DNA of 64,000 nucleotides. Origin: an uncultured Pseudomonadales bacterium (GTDB lineage Bacteria > Patescibacteriota > Microgenomatia > UBA1400 > PJMF01). The translations under genes were made by a program, and so were the position numbers. The stretch is from the NCBI GenBank assembly GCA_964645645.1, contig CAZYBC010000001.1, positions 6,064-70,063 on the forward strand, written 5' to 3'. The notes below the pieces were generated by a model that ran no database searches, was not told the DNA's origin, and saw only the letters and a list, made by a program, of their open reading frames with translations. Below, piece after piece: positions 4,079 through 64,000 of this stretch (positions are counted from its first letter, which is position 1; each line of letters opens with the position of its first letter).

Positions 4079-4261
4079 ATGCCAAAAGTGTTAATCAAAG
4101 AAATTAGAGGCTACATCGGAGCAAAAGAATACTTTTGCCCCAATTGTGGTGAAGAATTAGGATTGAACGCACACATTGACCATCTGTTAATGGACAGTGA
4201 CCTTGAAAAGATTCAGGCGTACTTTCTCTACTGCAATCGGTGCGGAGAAAAGATCGAGTGA
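4079..4261 (+). CDS. Small zinc-ribbon protein (two CxxC pairs).
   Basis: CPNCGEE...CNRCGEK. The ATG at 4079 is preceded by GAAAGGAAAG (Shine-Dalgarno). The ORF track starts earlier, at GTG 4064. Confidence 0.45.
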   Translation: MPKVLIKEIRGYIGAKEYFCPNCGEELGLNAHIDHLLMDSDLEKIQAYFLYCNRCGEKIE

Positions 4262-4422
4262 AACCTTTTGAAGTTGAGCCAAATCAAACCTGAAAATAAA
4301 ATATAGGTATATAAAAAAAGAGGCTGTGTCCGTCTAAAGAAACAACCTCTTTTACATTACAAACAGCGTTTCCGCCGTTAGTGAATATAATATCACACAC
4401 GACGGAGCCTAGAAAGGAAGCT

Positions 4423-4926
4423 ATGACAACGGGCTTTGTATCCGTCGGAAGACGCCATTTAGAAATTGACCCCACAGATGTGGCAGTTAGAGATTACTTC
4501 GGAGTATCCCAACTATTCCGCTACTCCCTCGCTTTTTCCGAAAAAGCATACGACCAAACATTGATACTTGTTCCAGGGCATGATTGGGTACTTCATCCAG
4601 ATATAGCGGTACCTGACGACTTGAACCCCAACCTTAGAGGACAAGACTTGAACCTACAAGATCAAACTCAGTGGTTTTCCAGCATTGCAGATCAGATTCG
4701 TGAGTATTGCCCTGCTGAATCTGAATTATTTTTCCATTCTGGGAAATGGTTTGACCAGCTATTCACCTATCTCAGTCAACCAGATCCGATTTCAGGAAGT
4801 CCAACCTGTTATACCTTCCACACGCCAATGCGAGATCAACATTTAAGAATAGGAAAACAGTTGGCGTTCTATAAGTCGATGGTCGGGCAATTACCCTCAG
4901 TAAAAAATGAAAGGAGGGCTAAATGA
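4423..4926 (+). CDS. Hypothetical protein translationally coupled to the serine recombinase. It could be an accessory or directionality factor.
   Basis: ATG at 4423 is preceded by GAAAGGAAG. Its stop overlaps the recombinase start (ATGA at 4923-4926). Confidence 0.5.
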   Translation: MTTGFVSVGRRHLEIDPTDVAVRDYFGVSQLFRYSLAFSEKAYDQTLILVPGHDWVLHPDIAVPDDLNPNLRGQDLNLQDQTQWFSSIADQIREYCPAESELFFHSGKWFDQLFTYLSQPDPISGSPTCYTFHTPMRDQHLRIGKQLAFYKSMVGQLPSVKNERRAK

Positions 4927-6491
4927 ACAACAACGGAGCTAATACCGCCTATGCATACTGTCGAGTAAGTACAGACCGCCAAGCCAAAGAAGGATTTTCA
5001 CTTGAACAACAAAAGAAGTCCTGTGAACAACTCGCCAAAAGTCATTCAATTAAAATACTCGATTTTTATATCGATCGAGGAGAAACCGCCACTGCCTCGA
5101 ACCGCAAACAGTTTATGCAGATGTTAGAAGACTGTGAGCGCAAAGAAGTGAAGTACATCTTGGTATATCATACCGACCGATTTGCAAGAAATAGCCTAGA
5201 CCACCTCGTAATTAAGGACAGGTTAGCAAAACTTAACATTGCACTTCTGTCAGTCACCCAACCAATGATTGACTCATCTCCAGAGGGTAAGTTGCTCGAC
5301 ACTATGATGGCTTCCATCAACCAATTTTACAGTGACGATCTATCTAGAAAAACAATGCGTGGCATGTATGGTCGCTGGGAAAAGGGCTGGTGGGTATCTG
5401 GTGCACCACACGGCTATATGAATATTAATAAAGAAAATAGAATCACTAAAACATCTTTTACAGTCGAGAAGCAAAAGTACCTAGACTCGCTAGGTCGACC
5501 AATTATGCCAATTGAACAAGACCCTTTCGTAGCACCTTACATCAAGCAAGCATTTGAATTGTACGCCACAAATAACTACTCATATTTTAATCTGGGTCAA
5601 TACTTATTTGAAAAAGGACTAAAGACAGCAAATGGTAAACCCTTAGCCCACAGCACCATTCACCAGATCATAACGAACAGTTTTTATTTTGGAAAAATGC
5701 GCTGGAACAATGAAGAGAGGATGGGAAAACATGAACCACTTATTGATGAGGCACTTTTCAAACACTGTCAATTGATCGCAGCTCAAAAAAGGCACTTCAT
5801 CATTCGTCAACGCAAACATGACTTCTTACTGCGTGGTGTAGTTTTCTGCAATAGGTGTGGTCTGCGGTATACGGCCGAGTGGCACAAAATAAACTCTACT
5901 AGCTCAGACAAAATAGCCTATTACCACTGTGCTAAACGCCAGCCATGTAAATCCCCTTATGTAGAGATGGAAGAACTTGAATCTCTAGTTGAGAAACAAC
6001 TGCGTAAAGTTAAGTTCACCGATGAGTTCATCCAATTACTCAGTGACAAGGTAAAAGAGTACTTAGAGAATCAAGGATCCCGTAATAGTGAGGTGGAACA
6101 AATTCTAGTTAAACGCCGAGCAGAACTCAAAAAACAGAAAAGTGAGTTACTGTCTTACTTGGTTAACAAAGTGATTGATAAGGATGACTTTGCCGAGAAA
6201 AAAGCCGAGATTGAGAATGAAATTGAAGGTATCAATGAAGAGGTTGGTAAGCTAGATCGAACCAGCAATTTCGATTTTGACCTACTAGAGGAGGTACTAA
6301 AGTTAACTATGGACATTCCAGCCACCTACAATGACGCACCTCCAGAGCTCAAGAGACAGTATTTGAAGTTCTTCTATAATAAGGTGAAAGTGGACAACAA
6401 AAAAATTATAGCAGTTGAATTTTCTGATTTATTACTTGAGCTAATTTCTTTTAAGCGTCTTATAATAATCAGTAGAAGGCTCCCCGGGTAG
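4923..6491 (+). CDS. Large serine recombinase (resolvase/invertase catalytic domain, recombinase domain and zinc ribbon).
   Basis: YAYCRVSTDRQ catalytic serine motif. Length 522 aa. A C-terminal Cys cluster (CNRCG...YHCAKRQPC) is present. A strong SD (AAAGGAGGG) precedes the start. The stop TAG at 6489-6491 lies inside the 3' end of tRNA-Asn. Confidence 0.85.
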   Translation: MNNNGANTAYAYCRVSTDRQAKEGFSLEQQKKSCEQLAKSHSIKILDFYIDRGETATASNRKQFMQMLEDCERKEVKYILVYHTDRFARNSLDHLVIKDRLAKLNIALLSVTQPMIDSSPEGKLLDTMMASINQFYSDDLSRKTMRGMYGRWEKGWWVSGAPHGYMNINKENRITKTSFTVEKQKYLDSLGRPIMPIEQDPFVAPYIKQAFELYATNNYSYFNLGQYLFEKGLKTANGKPLAHSTIHQIITNSFYFGKMRWNNEERMGKHEPLIDEALFKHCQLIAAQKRHFIIRQRKHDFLLRGVVFCNRCGLRYTAEWHKINSTSSDKIAYYHCAKRQPCKSPYVEMEELESLVEKQLRKVKFTDEFIQLLSDKVKEYLENQGSRNSEVEQILVKRRAELKKQKSELLSYLVNKVIDKDDFAEKKAEIENEIEGINEEVGKLDRTSNFDFDLLEEVLKLTMDIPATYNDAPPELKRQYLKFFYNKVKVDNKKIIAVEFSDLLLELISFKRLIIISRRLPG

Positions 6492-56361: not shown

Positions 56362-56446
56362 GGAAGTGTCGCATAGTGGTCGATTGCACACGCCTGGAAA
56401 GCGTGAGCTCGCAAGGGCTTCGTGGGTTCGAATCCCACCACTTCCG
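56362..56446 (+). tRNA. tRNA-Ser (anticodon GGA).
   Basis: Acceptor GGAAGTG/CACTTCC, anticodon stem CACGC/GCGTG with loop CTGGAAA, long variable arm, T-arm GTGGG-TTCGAAT-CCCAC, discriminator G. CCA is not encoded. Confidence 0.8.
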
Positions 56447-56454
56447 CAGTTACA

Positions 56455-57866: not shown

Positions 57867-57969
57867 GCATTCATAGTTCAATAGGATAGAATAGGGTTTT
57901 GACTAAGGACATAATCTATTTATGATTTTAGTTAAGCCTCAGCTGGCAGTTCGAATCTGCCTGAATGCA
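57867..57969 (+). other. Non-canonical tRNA-like element, possibly a pseudo-tRNA or att remnant.
   Basis: Canonical T-arm GGCAG-TTCGAAT-CTGCC followed by TGAATGC + A. A perfect 7-nt complement, GCATTCA, lies 95 nt upstream. The D-arm and anticodon arm cannot be folded canonically. The total is 103 nt. Confidence 0.4.
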
Positions 57970-58037: not shown

Positions 58038-59630
58038 ATGACAAAAATATTAAAAACACCAACTTCAAACACTAGCAAAGAACAAGAACGTGCCGAATTG
58101 CACCGAACTATCTGGCAAATTGCCAATGATCTACGTGGGAGTGTTGATGGTTGGGATTTTAAATCATATGTATTAGGAATGCTTTTTTACCGCTTTATTA
58201 GTGAAAATCTAACTAACTATATTAATGATGACGAACGCCGTTCTGGAAGCTTAAACTTTGACTATGCAAAACTTACAGACAAAGAAGCAGAATTTGGTCG
58301 GACCGATACTGTAAAAGAAAAAGGCTTCTATATTTTACCCAGCGAATTGTTTGTTAACGTCTGCAAGAAAGCCAAAAACGACAAAAATCTTAATGAGACA
58401 CTAGCAAAAATTTTTGCGAACATTGAAAATTCAGCTAAAGGTTCAACAAGCGAAGATGATCTCAAAGGTTTATTTGCTGACTTAGACGTTAACTCAAGTA
58501 AACTTGGCAATACTGTTGAACACCGCAATCAAAAACTGGTTAAGATTATTGAGGCAGTCAGCAATCTTCGCCTTGGCAATTACTCAGACCATACCATTGA
58601 TGCTTTTGGAGACGCTTACGAATTTTTAATGACCATGTATGCCTCTAATGCTGGTAAATCTGGAGGTGAATTTTATACACCTCAAGAAGTAAGTGAATTA
58701 CTGGCAGAAATTACTACCGTTGGTAAAAAAGAAGTCAATAAAGTTTATGACCCGGCTTGTGGCTCTGGTTCTCTGCTTCTTAAATTTGCCAAAGTGCTTG
58801 GTAAAGAAAATGTCCGCCAAGGATTTTTTGGCCAAGAAATTAATCTCACTACTTACAACTTATGTCGCATCAACATGTTTTTGCACGACATTAATTACAA
58901 TAATTTTGATATTGCCCTTGGCGATACTTTGCTTGAACCAAAACATTGGGATGATGAACCATTTGATGCAATTGTATCCAATCCTCCCTATTCAATTAAA
59001 TGGGAAGGAGATGCTAATCCGCTTCTTATCAATGATCCCCGCTTCTCACCGGCTGGAGTACTCGCCCCAAAAGGCAAGGCTGATTTAGCTTTTACCATGC
59101 ACATGCTTTCCTGGTTATCTACCGGTGGTACAGCCGCAATTGTTGAATTCCCAGGAGTTCTTTACCGCGGAGGAGCTGAACAAAAAATTAGAAAATATCT
59201 TCTTGAAAATAACTATGTCGATACAGTCATTCAATTGCCACCAGATTTGTTTTTTGGGACTACAATTGCAACTTGTGTCATTGTCCTTAAAAAAAGCAAA
59301 AAAGATAATAAAACTTTGTTTATTGACGCTTCAAAAGAATTTATCAGAAATGGCAATAAAAATAAATTAAGCGAAACAAACCGTCAAAAAATTTTAGAAG
59401 CCTTTATGGCTCGTCAAGATAGCAAATATTTTGCCAAATTAGTGGATAACAAAGCAATTGCAGAGAATGAGTACAACATCTCGGTTTCTAGCTATGTGGA
59501 ACAGGAAGATACACGAGAAGTAATTGATATTACCAAGTTGAATGCTGAGATAAAGCAGATTGTGGCTAGACAACAAGAGCTAAGGTTAGCGATTGATGGA
59601 ATAGTAAAGGATATTGAAGGAAAAGATTAA
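58038..59630 (+). CDS. hsdM: Type I restriction-modification N6-adenine DNA methyltransferase subunit M.
   Basis: HsdM N-terminal domain, the SAM motif DPACGSGSLL, and the catalytic NPPY (IVSNPPYSIKW). Confidence 0.9.
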   Translation: MTKILKTPTSNTSKEQERAELHRTIWQIANDLRGSVDGWDFKSYVLGMLFYRFISENLTNYINDDERRSGSLNFDYAKLTDKEAEFGRTDTVKEKGFYILPSELFVNVCKKAKNDKNLNETLAKIFANIENSAKGSTSEDDLKGLFADLDVNSSKLGNTVEHRNQKLVKIIEAVSNLRLGNYSDHTIDAFGDAYEFLMTMYASNAGKSGGEFYTPQEVSELLAEITTVGKKEVNKVYDPACGSGSLLLKFAKVLGKENVRQGFFGQEINLTTYNLCRINMFLHDINYNNFDIALGDTLLEPKHWDDEPFDAIVSNPPYSIKWEGDANPLLINDPRFSPAGVLAPKGKADLAFTMHMLSWLSTGGTAAIVEFPGVLYRGGAEQKIRKYLLENNYVDTVIQLPPDLFFGTTIATCVIVLKKSKKDNKTLFIDASKEFIRNGNKNKLSETNRQKILEAFMARQDSKYFAKLVDNKAIAENEYNISVSSYVEQEDTREVIDITKLNAEIKQIVARQQELRLAIDGIVKDIEGKD

Positions 59631-59635
59631 AAACT

Positions 59636-61921
59636 ATGGAAATCAAAAGTATAAAAGAAATAAAAAACATTGGCATATTTGCAAATTTTGCAAATGGAGC
59701 AACTTTTCGCTTTGATGAAAAGATTACTTTTATTTATGGATTAAATACTTTTGGAAAGACTACACTTACGGATATTTTTCAATCTTTAAAAGACAATAAC
59801 TCAAATATAATAAATTCAAGAAGAACAATCCCCACACAACAAGGAAATCAAAAAGTAGTAATCTCAATATTTGATCAAAATCCTCCTGAAAAAGATTTAA
59901 TATTTCAAAACAATAATTGGGGACAAAATAGCTTATCAGAACATCTTGAAGTTTTTGGAACAGAATTTATTCATAGGAATCTATTTACAGGGTTATCTAT
60001 TGAAAGAGAAAATAAGGAGAATTTTACAGATTTTATTTTAGGAGAAGAAGGAGCAAAAATCGCTGAAAATATAGAAAATGATAAAAAAATTCTCGGGGAA
60101 AAGACAAGAAATAAAATAAATAAATTACCAAGGTTCATTAAAGAAAAATCAGAAAAAGAAATTACAGATTTTTTAAAGTTGGATATTTCAAGTTTAGATA
60201 AAAACAAAATTGAAGCAGATTTATTTAAATTAAAAACCGAAAAACAGGAAGAAGAAAGAAGATTGAAAGAACCTCAAAAAATTCTTAATTTAGAAAATCC
60301 AATTAAAGTAGTAATTCCTGAATTTACAATTTTAGAGAATTTAGAAAAAATAAATGATTATCTACAAAAAAATTATTCAAATATTAAAGAAAAGTTTTTA
60401 AAACGTTTAAACGAACATATAAATGAAAATTCTCTAAATCAAGATATCGCTGAAAACTGGATAAAACAAGGTTTTCATAATACAAAAGATAAAAACGGTA
60501 ATTGCTTGTTTTGTGGTCAGCCTTTAGTAAATGCAAAATATATTATTAATCTTTACGATAAATATTTTGATGTAAATTATTCAAACTATATCACGGAAAT
60601 AGAAACAGGTCTTAAAACAGAATTTAAAAATATTGAAAGTGCTTATTTTAACTTTCAAATTAAATTTACAAATCAATTTACTAGTGCTTCAAAATTTAAA
60701 GAGCTTATTTTAGATCAGTCATTTCAGGAGATATTAAATAATTTTGAAAAAAAACTTAAATGTATTAGTGATGATTCATTGGAAAATCAAAGGAAAATGC
60801 TAATACAAGCTATTAAAAAGAAAGCTGAACAGAAAAACAAAAAACCTTATATTTCAATAGATAAAATTAGTTTTGATGAATTTAAAAATAATCTGCAATC
60901 CTATATTAAATACTTGGCAGAAATAAATGATTTAATTGAAGAAACAGAGGAAAATATAAATAGTTTTAAAGAACAATACAAAGACACTTCAAAAATAACA
61001 GGCAAAATAAATGAGTTAAAGAAAAATATTGAAATTTTAGAATATCAAAAAGCAAGAATAGATCAAAACAAAGATTGTGAAGTTTATTTACAGGAAATTA
61101 AAGATATTAAAATTTTAAGCAAAAAAATTGATGAAAATAGGAAAAATCTCGAAGATAATCAAGATGAGTATTTAAAAAAATATTTTGTAAAAATAAACGA
61201 ATTATTTAAAAAATTTGGAAGTCATAATTTCATACTTGATAAAGTACAAGAAAACTTAGGGAATAAACCAGTTTATACTCTAAAAGTTAAATTTCATAAT
61301 CAAGAAATTTCAAATGAACAAATGAAAACTGTTTTTAGTGAGTCAGATAGAAGAGCTTTGGCTTTATCAATATTTTGGGCAAAAATTGAACTAAAAAAAG
61401 AAGTAGAAAAGCAAAAAACAATTGTTGTTTTAGATGATCCGATTACTAGTTTTGATGATAATAGAACGATGAATTTTATTTATTATATTAAAGATAATCT
61501 GCAAGAACTAAAGCAAATAATTATTTTTACTCATTACAATAAATTTCTATCAGATTACAATAAATTCACACAAGAAAAACACAAAACATATAAAATAGTA
61601 AGTGGAGGGAAACTAGATAATTTTGATTTAGATACTTTTTTAAAGAGCGAGTATGTTCAAACACTTGAAAAAATAGAAAACTTTATTAATGGAAAATCTA
61701 AAATTGATCCTGCGATTTTTAGATCATTTATTGATGTTTTATATAAACCTATATTTTCTGGAATAACACCAAATAACATTATTAATGATTTATATACAAA
61801 ATGTTGTACATTTAATCACAATGGTTTTAATTATGAACAAGAAGAAGAGAATGTAAGAAATTTTGCAAAAGAAATGAAAGAAAAACTTTATTCTTTTGAA
61901 TATAGAAATAATTCCGATTAA
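59636..61921 (+). CDS. AAA_13-family ATPase (PrrC/RloC-like) inserted between hsdM and hsdS. Candidate anticodon-nuclease or abortive-infection ATPase.
   Basis: N-terminal Walker A GLNTFGKTT. A central CxxC (GNCLFCGQPL) sits within a predicted coiled-coil. Walker B TIVVLDDPITSFD and H-loop IIIFTHYNKF are present. 761 aa. It sits in the classic hsdM-x-hsdS position. Confidence 0.6.
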   Translation: MEIKSIKEIKNIGIFANFANGATFRFDEKITFIYGLNTFGKTTLTDIFQSLKDNNSNIINSRRTIPTQQGNQKVVISIFDQNPPEKDLIFQNNNWGQNSLSEHLEVFGTEFIHRNLFTGLSIERENKENFTDFILGEEGAKIAENIENDKKILGEKTRNKINKLPRFIKEKSEKEITDFLKLDISSLDKNKIEADLFKLKTEKQEEERRLKEPQKILNLENPIKVVIPEFTILENLEKINDYLQKNYSNIKEKFLKRLNEHINENSLNQDIAENWIKQGFHNTKDKNGNCLFCGQPLVNAKYIINLYDKYFDVNYSNYITEIETGLKTEFKNIESAYFNFQIKFTNQFTSASKFKELILDQSFQEILNNFEKKLKCISDDSLENQRKMLIQAIKKKAEQKNKKPYISIDKISFDEFKNNLQSYIKYLAEINDLIEETEENINSFKEQYKDTSKITGKINELKKNIEILEYQKARIDQNKDCEVYLQEIKDIKILSKKIDENRKNLEDNQDEYLKKYFVKINELFKKFGSHNFILDKVQENLGNKPVYTLKVKFHNQEISNEQMKTVFSESDRRALALSIFWAKIELKKEVEKQKTIVVLDDPITSFDDNRTMNFIYYIKDNLQELKQIIIFTHYNKFLSDYNKFTQEKHKTYKIVSGGKLDNFDLDTFLKSEYVQTLEKIENFINGKSKIDPAIFRSFIDVLYKPIFSGITPNNIINDLYTKCCTFNHNGFNYEQEEENVRNFAKEMKEKLYSFEYRNNSD

Positions 61922-61924
61922 ACT

Positions 61925-63154
61925 ATGCCAACTCACCAATCCAAAATCGACCGCCTCATTAGCGACCTTTGTCCCAACGGTGTTGAGTATAAAACCCTGG
62001 GTGAGATAGGAACTTTCGTTCGAGGTAGCGGTTTACAAAAAACTAACTTTACTGAAACTGGAGTAGGATGCATTCACTATGGTCAAATCTACACCTACTA
62101 CAAATTATTTACTAAAAAGACAAAATCTTTTGTATCTTCTGAGCTTGCAGATAAATTAAAAAAGGTTCAAAAAGGAAACCTTGTAATTGCTTGTACTAGT
62201 GAAAATGTTGAAGATGTATGTAAATCTATTGTTTGGCTTGGGGATAAAGATATAGTTACTGGTGGTCACTCAACTATTTTTAAACACAACGAGAACCCGT
62301 TATACGTTGCTTATTTTTTTCAATCTAAAAATTTTTTTGATCAGAAAACAAAATACGTTAAGGGTACCAAAGTAATAGAAATGTCAGCTAAAGACTTGGC
62401 TAAAATAAAAATCCCCCTTCCTCCCCTTCTAATTCAAGCCGAAATCGTCAAAATTCTTGATAATTTTACAGAGCTGGAAGCAGAGCTGGAAGCAGAGCTG
62501 GAAGCAAGGAAGAAGCAATATGAGTACTATCGAGCAAGCTTGTTTGGAGTTAAAGATGCTATTTATAAAAACTTAGGGGATGTGTGTTATATAACATCTG
62601 GGGGGACTCCATCTAAATTAAAAAAGGAATATTGGGATAGTGGGGATATTCCTTGGATAAAATCTGAATCATGTAAAAATCAACCTGTGTATTCAGCGAC
62701 AAACTTTATAGCCGCAGATGGTTTGAAGAACTCTGGTGCCAAACTATTAGATTCTGATACCACGTTAATGGCTCTTGTTGGTGCAACCATTTTTAAAACC
62801 GCATTTTTAGAATTTAAAGCCAGCACAAATCAAAATATTGCGAGTATTAAGTCAAAAGATAAATTAATATTGAAGGATAAGTTCATCTTTTATTATTTAA
62901 CTCAACTTTATTTCGATTTAAAAAATAAAATGAAAAATTATGGAATGCTCAATTTAACAACACTAAGATCATTTAAAATTCCCATACCACCAATTAAAGA
63001 ACAACAACGCATCGTTTCCATTCTCGATAAATTTGACGCCCTCGTTAACGATATCTCTATTGGCCTACCAGCCGAACTTAGTGCAAGACGACAACAATAC
63101 GAGTATTATCGAAATAAGCTGCTGACATTTAAACCATTAAAAAATTATGCCTAA
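61925..63154 (+). CDS. hsdS: Type I restriction-modification specificity subunit S, with two target-recognition domains.
   Basis: Two TRDs are separated by the conserved spacers LPPLLIQAEIVKILD...KKQYEYYR and LPAELSARRQQYEYYRNKLL. The central region contains the tandem ELEAELEAELEA. Confidence 0.88.
   Translation: MPTHQSKIDRLISDLCPNGVEYKTLGEIGTFVRGSGLQKTNFTETGVGCIHYGQIYTYYKLFTKKTKSFVSSELADKLKKVQKGNLVIACTSENVEDVCKSIVWLGDKDIVTGGHSTIFKHNENPLYVAYFFQSKNFFDQKTKYVKGTKVIEMSAKDLAKIKIPLPPLLIQAEIVKILDNFTELEAELEAELEARKKQYEYYRASLFGVKDAIYKNLGDVCYITSGGTPSKLKKEYWDSGDIPWIKSESCKNQPVYSATNFIAADGLKNSGAKLLDSDTTLMALVGATIFKTAFLEFKASTNQNIASIKSKDKLILKDKFIFYYLTQLYFDLKNKMKNYGMLNLTTLRSFKIPIPPIKEQQRIVSILDKFDALVNDISIGLPAELSARRQQYEYYRNKLLTFKPLKNYA
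62471..62506 (+). repeat. Perfect 12-bp tandem repeat x3 (GAGCTGGAAGCA) inside hsdS.
   Basis: Read directly from the sequence. It encodes (ELEA)3 in the central conserved spacer of HsdS. Confidence 0.95.
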
Positions 63155-63953
63155 AATAACCGTACAACAAACAGAAATTTCAATCCTTACTAAGCTCGGA
63201 AATGATTATATTTCTTTGACTGATATTGCAAAATATAAGAGTGATGATCCAACTGCAACAATTTCAAACTGGATGAGAAATCGTAATACTATCGAATATT
63301 TGGGCATCTGGGAGACCTTATATAATTCTGAGTTTAAACCCCTCGAATTCGAGGGGTTTAGAAAACAAGCAGGACTCAATGCTTTTACTATATCACCTCA
63401 AAAATGGATAGAAAAAACGAATGCAAAAGGAATCATCTCCAAATCAGGTCGCTATGGAGGCACCTATGCTCATAAAGATATTGCCTTAAAATTTGCTGCC
63501 TGGATTTCTATTGAATTTGAACTGTACTTTATAAAAGAATTTCAAAGACTTAAAGAGGCAGAGCAAAAACAGCTCGGTTGGTCGGCCAAACGTGAATTGG
63601 CTAAAATCAATTATCATATCCACACCGATGCCATCAAGAAAAATCTTATCCCACCAAAGCTTACTAAAGCTCAAATTAACTTTGTTTATGCCAACGAAGC
63701 CGACGTGCTTAACGTTGCTTTATTTGGCATAACTGCCAAACAATGGCGAGATATTAATGCTAATTTAAAAGGTAACATTCGCGACTACGCCAATATTCAT
63801 CAACTGATTTGTTTGTCTAACCTAGAAAATCTTAATGCCGTTTTTATTAACGATAAATTACCTCAAAGTGAACGTTTGGAAAAACTAAACAATATTGCCA
63901 TCGGCCAAATGAAAGTGTTACAAGAAATAGAAGGAAGAAAATTACTCAAATAA
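63147..63953 (+). CDS. KilA-N/Bro-N-like domain protein.
   Basis: N-terminal YISLTDIAKY...ISNWMRNRNTIEYLGIWE resembles the KilA-N domain. It overlaps the hsdS stop. Confidence 0.45.
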   Translation: MPKITVQQTEISILTKLGNDYISLTDIAKYKSDDPTATISNWMRNRNTIEYLGIWETLYNSEFKPLEFEGFRKQAGLNAFTISPQKWIEKTNAKGIISKSGRYGGTYAHKDIALKFAAWISIEFELYFIKEFQRLKEAEQKQLGWSAKRELAKINYHIHTDAIKKNLIPPKLTKAQINFVYANEADVLNVALFGITAKQWRDINANLKGNIRDYANIHQLICLSNLENLNAVFINDKLPQSERLEKLNNIAIGQMKVLQEIEGRKLLK

Positions 63954-64000
63954 CTATGTCAAATCAAATAACTTATTACAACTTGGTTGCACAAGGATCT

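Follow-up and report, generated by a model that had tools for sequence, protein, structure and literature searches.

A perfect in-frame 12-nt tandem repeat within the conserved central region of a Type IC-like hsdS gene, a candidate determinant of target spacing

Gene content of the locus and features of HsdS

The 64-kb stretch of DNA analysed in this study (hereafter the window) ends in a Type I restriction-modification (RM) gene cluster, the features of which are listed in Table 1. HsdM of this cluster contained the N6_Mtase and HsdM_N domains (Pfam) and scored 764 bits with the hsdM model TIGR00497. It matched the M protein of EcoR124 over its full length (7bst_D; E = 1.6e-192), and its match to the M protein of the Type IA system EcoKI was far weaker (E about 1e-14). 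Similarly, the top PDB match of HsdS was HsdS of EcoR124 (7bst_A; E = 1.4e-48). HsdM and the conserved regions of HsdS were thus much closer to their EcoR124 counterparts than to those of the prototypes of Types IA, IB and ID. A tetrad repeat in the centre of HsdS, which is a typical feature of Type IC (PMC10030836; bioRxiv 10.1101/2022.09.01.506293), was also found, as ELEA x3 at residues 183–194 aligned to the TAEL region of EcoR124. Judged from these sequence matches, the RM system belongs to the Type IC (EcoR124) family.

Table 1. Features of the RM gene cluster and of the hsdS gene (positions in the window)
Feature	Position	Strand	Basis
hsdM, Type I methyltransferase subunit, EcoR124-like	58038..59630	+	Pfam, TIGR00497, 7bst_D
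AAA_13 ATPase gene, 761 aa, between hsdM and hsdS	59636..61921	+	Pfam AAA_13 (E = 7.7e-36); PADLOC
hsdS, Type IC-like specificity subunit, 409 aa	61925..63154	+	ORF, Pfam, PADLOC, 7bst_A match
Central long helix with the repeat, residues 168–206, 39 aa	62426..62542	+	AlphaFold2 model
Tandem repeat GAGCTGGAAGCA x3, encoding ELEA x3	62471..62506	+	Sequence, Tandem Repeats Finder, shuffle control
C-terminal long helix, residues 357–399, 43 aa	62993..63121	+	AlphaFold2 model
Gene of a 268-aa KilA-N domain protein, located between hsdS and probable hsdR	63147..63953	+	Pfam KilA-N (E = 3.3e-23); PADLOC
Probable hsdR start (MSNQITYYNLVAQGS...), first 45 nt in the window	63956..64000	+	Comparison with metagenome locus L102

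Two accessory genes are inserted in the cluster. The AAA_13 protein matched the PADLOC candidate defence family PDC-S06 (E = 1.5e-165), possessed a CxxC motif in its middle part (NGNCLFCGQPL) and had no relative in the PDB by sequence search. The GC content of its gene was 0.20–0.24, compared with about 0.33 for the neighbouring genes. Its position recalls that of the PrrC/RloC-type genes that are embedded in Type IC loci, and a role of this kind was considered from the CxxC motif. The AAA_13 gene lies outside the repeat mechanism discussed below. The other accessory gene encodes a KilA-N protein, which matched the PADLOC candidate family PDC-S22 (E = 3.7e-132). In the metagenome locus L102, a homolog that was 86% identical to this protein is also found between hsdS and hsdR (4235–5041). 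The ORF that follows the KilA-N gene in L102 begins with MPNNNKYNLVAENS..., and the sequence after this start is that of a typical N-terminal domain of HsdR. From the order hsdS, KilA-N gene and hsdR in L102, the ORF starting at 63956 of the window is probably the start of hsdR, most of which lies beyond the window end, and the RM system is presumably complete. In the related loci L068, L070 and L191–L193, HsdR carries the EcoR124_C domain (PF12008).

Just upstream of hsdM, a tRNA was called by Rfam at 57867–57969 (+) with 44.7 bits, with a 32-nt insertion in its anticodon-loop region; ARAGORN made no call at this position. This tRNA could contain an intron. Together with the tRNA-Ser at 56362–56447, it suggests that the RM cluster occupies a tRNA-linked insertion site.

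HsdS of the window matched Methylase_S in two stretches (Pfam; E = 1.3e-43) and the PADLOC model Specificity_I (E = 1.4e-147). It consists of an N-terminal conserved region (residues 1–30), the first target recognition domain (TRD1, about 31–158), a central conserved region (about 159–212), TRD2 (about 213–352) and a C-terminal conserved region (353–409). Thus, a central conserved region lies between the two TRDs, and a similar C-terminal one comes after TRD2, as in the Type IC family. The similarity of the two regions is apparent from their motifs, which are ...IVKILDNF-x13-RKKQYEYYR in the centre and ...IVSILDKF-x17-RRQQYEYYR at the C-terminus. The linker between ILDxF and RxxQY therefore measures 13 aa in the central helix, whereas that of the C-terminal helix (DALVNDISIGLPAELSA) is 17 aa long, a difference of four residues. 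The AlphaFold2 model of HsdS (m046f5ea8b6cc; built on 62 sequences, mean pLDDT 93.4) comprised a pair of long helices in addition to two TRDs of globular shape, and ELEA x3 was located inside the central helix. In Type I HsdS proteins, the central helix, which is the first one, packs antiparallel to the C-terminal helix, and the distance between the TRDs is set by this pair (Loenen et al., 2014; PMC3874165). The C-terminal helix of the window HsdS is expected to be the antiparallel partner of its central helix accordingly.

No second copy or fragment of hsdS was found in the window, as tblastn of HsdS against the window returned the gene itself only, and no long stretch of repeated DNA was common to the central and the C-terminal conserved region. 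An hsdS shuffling system within the window was thus ruled out.

The repeat array and its counterparts in known Type IC systems

The tandem array consists of three perfect copies of GAGCTGGAAGCA at 62471–62482, 62483–62494 and 62495–62506 (+), read directly from the window, and an earlier note on this DNA had described it correctly as three copies with 100% nucleotide identity. Tandem Repeats Finder reported it at 62469–62506 with a period of 12, 3.2 copies, 100% matches and a score of 76, the highest of any tandem repeat in the window. The two bases (CA) on the 5' side of 62471 are also periodic, so that the array is slightly longer than first described. It is also the sole perfect three-copy tandem with a period of 6 to 24 in the window. 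No such tandem occurred in 200 shuffles of the window, and about 3e-9 per window are expected from the base composition; chance was thereby ruled out as the origin of the array.

The array is in frame with hsdS, and its product, ELEAELEAELEA, is flanked by ...LPPLLIQAEIVKILDNFT on the N-terminal side and RKKQYEYYR on the C-terminal side. The placement given in the earlier note, between the first conserved spacer and the KKQYEYYR motif, therefore agrees with the translated ORF. In the HMMER alignment, the linker TELEAELEAELEA was opposite to the TAEL region of EcoR124I without any gap, including the flanking ILDNF and RKKQYEYYR. Therefore, the position of the repeat is homologous to that of the TAEL repeat.

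In EcoR124, a 12-bp repeat encodes TAEL, and two copies (EcoR124I) result in recognition of GAA N6 RTCG, while three copies (EcoR124II) result in recognition of GAA N7 RTCG (PMC3874165). The copy number changes by unequal crossing-over, a unit corresponds to approximately one helical turn, and copy number also determines gap length in EcoDXXI hybrids (PMC3874165). The earlier note had drawn the parallel with EcoR124I/II. The homology of position sustains this parallel; equating the three copies of the window with the three of EcoR124II does not hold, as the 13-aa linker of the window HsdS has the length of that of EcoR124I (N6). Similar to EcoR124I, the window system has a 12-nt unit encoding four residues in the first helix between the TRDs, a highly similar HsdM and a 13-aa linker. 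Different from EcoR124I, in which two perfect TAEL units are accompanied by degenerate edge units (TAL... and ...NM), the window linker contains three perfect ELEA units. The TRDs also differ, as do the gene order, which in the window includes two inserted accessory genes, and the genetic background, which is an enterobacterial plasmid for EcoR124 and a genome of 33% GC for the window.

The tetra-amino-acid repeats TAEL, LEAT, SEAL and TSEL are characteristic of Type IC HsdS and set the spacer length (Adamczyk-Poplawska 2003, as cited in PMC10030836). The amino-acid repeat of the window has a described counterpart in hsdS of XfaII from Xylella fastidiosa, a 12-base LEAE repeat whose copy number within a single allele lies between 0.75 and 3.75, with an outlying strain of 11.75 copies (bioRxiv 10.1101/2022.09.01.506293). 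ELEA x3 of the window, read one residue later, is LEAELEAELEA, or 2.75 LEAE units as counted in that study, and both repeats are located in the core conserved region. The two systems differ in organism and TRDs. Moreover, variation between strains was observed directly in Xylella, whereas the window is a single sequence. In Neisseria gonorrhoeae, the copy number of LEAT goes with N6 or N7 motifs in the methylomes (PMC6789123). NgoAV is also of Type IC with a tetra-amino-acid repeat (LEAT) in the centre of HsdS; its hsdS, however, is truncated by a homopolymer frameshift and yields a half-subunit dimer (PMC6789123; Adamczyk-Poplawska 2003, as cited in PMC10030836), whereas hsdS of the window is full length with two TRDs.

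Repeat copy number and unit sequence among related hsdS genes

The window HsdS was absent from a collection of 5.8 billion proteins, in which the best full-length identity was about 63%. No protein hit exceeded about 66% identity, and the hits at that level covered one TRD only. The TRD1 peptide VIEMSAKDLAKIK, searched for as a degenerate pattern of 38 nt, had no match in metagenome contigs, and neither TRD of the window HsdS was found at ≥60% in any of 67 genome loci with the repeat unit. The hsdS gene of the window is a previously unseen allele of a known mechanism.

The central linkers of the best 120 homologs were overwhelmingly 9, 13 or 17 aa long, of which 13 aa was the commonest. Where it was detected in these 120 homologs, the C-terminal linker was 17 aa long in all but one (P0016, 13 aa). 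An exact 24-mer of two GAGCTGGAAGCA units was identified in 67 species genomes from many phyla, including Patescibacteria, Gammaproteobacteria, Actinomycetes, Bacteroidota and Chlamydiales, and always at this position of hsdS. These 67 loci contained two (23 loci), three (32), four (11) or nine (1) perfect copies. Together with a metagenome scan, they gave at least 171 distinct contexts carrying the GAGCTGGAAGCA unit. Among the contexts listed, the linkers were 13 aa (76), 17 aa (70), 21 aa (4), 9 aa (2), 25 aa (1) and 41 aa (1) long; seven were off-step (10, 16 or 20 aa) and two were unmeasurable. In a codon-unbiased sample of 79 IMG/VR loci, which were retrieved with degenerate peptide patterns, the central linkers were 17 aa (40), 13 aa (36), 9 aa (1) or 14 aa (1) long, and the C-terminal segment was 17 aa in nearly every locus. 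Thus, across P0001–P0120 and L194–L272 the central linker varies by steps of four residues and the C-terminal segment is nearly constant at 17 aa, and the two helices therefore differ in length as a rule. In PMC3874165, the way in which the helix pair copes with a change of one turn on one side only was called unresolved. The 13-aa linker of the window HsdS falls into the most common class.

The longest array was that of an Actinomycetes MAG (L012; JAKAZZ010000021.1, 6865–6972, −), in whose assembled hsdS nine perfect GAGCTGGAAGCA units and one imperfect unit form a linker of 41 aa, well above the customary 13 or 17 aa, and which parallels the Xylella strain with 11.75 units. In five other loci (L011, L018, L027, L051 and L063), the hsdS ORFs were only 198–214 codons long, with a stop about 20–25 residues past the repeat. 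They contained TRD1 and the central conserved region only and were natural half-size S subunits, of the kind that dimerises on palindromic targets (EcoR124I delta-50, NgoAV).

The earlier note had suggested a comparison with related hsdS genes, and alleles that are nearly identical were found to differ by exactly one unit. Between L068 (JGI) and L070 (ENA), the alignment of 13,245 nt was free of mismatches, and its only gap, of 12 nt, corresponded to one repeat unit of hsdS. Two EcoR124-like loci with TAEL x2 and x3 (L214 and L217) also differed by one 12-nt gap in 4,281 nt without any mismatch. In addition, L074 and L088, whose unit is GAGCTGGAAGCA as in the window, carried four and three copies, respectively, between identical flanks of 550 and 700 nt (1.25 kb). 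Further differences in unit number were found between L161 (x3+1) and both L173 and L181 (x2+1) as well as between L101 and L112. L191 and L192 were 98.8% identical over 7.9 kb with the repeat unit as the only gap, and several protein pairs that were 95–99% identical had a single 4-aa gap. Every variant observed among the relatives keeps the reading frame. Rather than being fixed at three diverged copies, the arrays of the related genes ranged from 2 to 10 units. Conversely, the copy number was the same in many loci whose flanks are identical, some of these loci being a single contig present in two collections. Given these loci, the array is not wildly unstable; it is a hot spot but not a chaotic one. 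The TRDs were also exchanged in one allele family. The upstream part (TRD1) of L089 was 100% identical to those of L161, L173 and L181, but its TRD2 was different and it carried x4+1 units, compared with x3+1 or x2+1 in the others. Hence, TRD swapping and spacer change both occur in this family.

The units were homogeneous within arrays. Of the 106 adjacent tetrads identical in amino acids in the IMG/VR sample, 85 were also identical in nucleotides, and the exceptions were mostly the unit at the 3' edge, which differed at its last base. Other lineages carry other perfect units, such as GAGCTGGAGGCG, GAGCTTACAGCC, GAGCTTACCGCT and GAACTTGAGGCT. Such homogeneous, lineage-specific units support concerted evolution by repeated unequal exchange or slippage and a dynamic array in general. 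The earlier note had regarded the perfect identity as a sign of recent or ongoing slippage. Because perfect units are the norm in the family, they speak for array homogenisation in general, and perfect identity was dropped as an argument for a recent duplication in this genome.

The codons of GAGCTGGAAGCA are rare in the host genome, where GAG accounts for 15% of the Glu codons and CTG for 4% of the Leu codons. Moreover, the GC3 values of hsdS were 0.50 for the N-terminal, 0.35 for the central and 0.32 for the C-terminal conserved region, compared with 0.23 for TRD1 and 0.25 for TRD2. The rare codons in the unit and the higher GC3 of the conserved regions suggest that the conserved modules and the TRDs of hsdS have different histories.

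Interpretation of the repeat and its biological meaning

The array is most probably the tetra-amino-acid tandem repeat that Type IC HsdS subunits typically carry in their conserved centre, with ELEA/LEAE as the counterpart of TAEL, in which a change by whole units would create a new specificity; we estimate the probability of this interpretation at about 0.85. The repeat is part of the first of two long helices, which, by the structures of the family, pack antiparallel and keep the distance and rotation of the TRDs constant. A 12-nt unit adds four residues, or about one helical turn, and one added unit would make the bipartite target 1 bp longer in its non-specific gap, as it does in the characterised members. 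Whole units would be added or removed by unequal crossing-over or replication slippage, and the reading frame would be kept because the units are identical and their length is a multiple of three. A change in unit number would therefore result in a new specificity rather than in an on/off switch. At the level of the family, this interpretation is supported by the homology and position of the repeat, its helical context, the quantised linkers and the one-unit differences between natural alleles. For the window allele itself, the target gap would be predicted to change with copy number, and such variants may arise in its lineage.

It is possible, but rather doubtful, that the repeat is a static structural element, which was inherited as a ready-made module with the horizontally spreading conserved regions of hsdS, is fixed in the 13-residue state as the optimal and common one and does not vary in the present population. 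In favour of this, 13 aa is the modal linker length, copy numbers are equal in many loci whose flanks are identical, and no variant of the window allele was found either in the protein collection or in the metagenome scan for TRD1. The rare codons (GAG and CTG) and the GC3 of the conserved regions, which exceeds that of the TRDs, also fit an imported module better than a local duplication. However, three otherwise identical locus pairs differ by one unit, which means that unit change can outpace point substitution in this family, and the homogeneous, lineage-specific units need ongoing exchange between units.

An extension in the opposite direction, that the array is a high-rate contingency locus in a bacterium with a small genome and low GC content, possibly of the Patescibacteria type, with cells carrying two, three or four copies, is considered improbable. 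The same low likelihood applies to its second element, by which GAGCTGGAAGCA would be a module shared across phyla at the nucleotide level and kept as a recombination substrate for TRD swapping and spacer change. GAGCTGGAAGCA does persist in more than 170 hsdS contexts of many phyla, even against the codon usage of the hosts. If the array were such a contingency locus, cells with two, three and four copies would differ in their methylomes and in their barriers to phages or plasmids.

An error of assembly in the copy number, by which a short repeat would have been collapsed or expanded, is very improbable. Nothing specific points to it, except that the window may be metagenome-assembled, as are most of the related loci, but ordinary sequencing reads and k-mer chains exceed the 36-nt array in length, linkers of 13 aa are the most frequent ones across independent assemblies, and the reading frame is intact with a confident HsdS model. 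Finally, frameshifting simple-sequence repeats are known from hsdS (PMC7383803), but an on/off tract that switches hsdS expression or truncates the protein was ruled out for practical purposes, given that the 12-nt unit is a multiple of three and keeps the frame, that such repeats were excluded from the candidates in PMC7383803, that all variants seen are in frame, and that the window offers no second hsdS copy or fragment to support shuffling.

As a counterpart of TAEL, the window repeat would share with phasevarions (PMC7383803) a reversible change, mediated by repeats, in the methylation specificity of a Type I system. Different from phasevarions, which turn expression on or off or shorten the protein by units not divisible by three, or shuffle TRDs by site-specific recombination, the frame is kept in the window and only the spacing of the TRDs would change. 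The principle dates back to EcoR124I/II, and the LEAE repeat was described in Xylella; the window thus adds an allele and no new idea. The one-unit pairs without any mismatch, the dominant 13- and 17-aa linkers next to a partner segment of almost always 17 aa, and the units homogenised in nearly all arrays, however, indicate that in-frame hsdS repeats are a widespread and fast-changing source of variation in Type I specificity. This class was deliberately left out of a large published screen of phase-variable hsdS genes, in which the exclusion of repeats divisible by three was named as a limitation (PMC7383803). If the copy number varies in the lineage of the window, the restriction barrier and genome-wide methylation would differ between otherwise identical cells, which would bear on the resistance to phages and on gene flow within the community.
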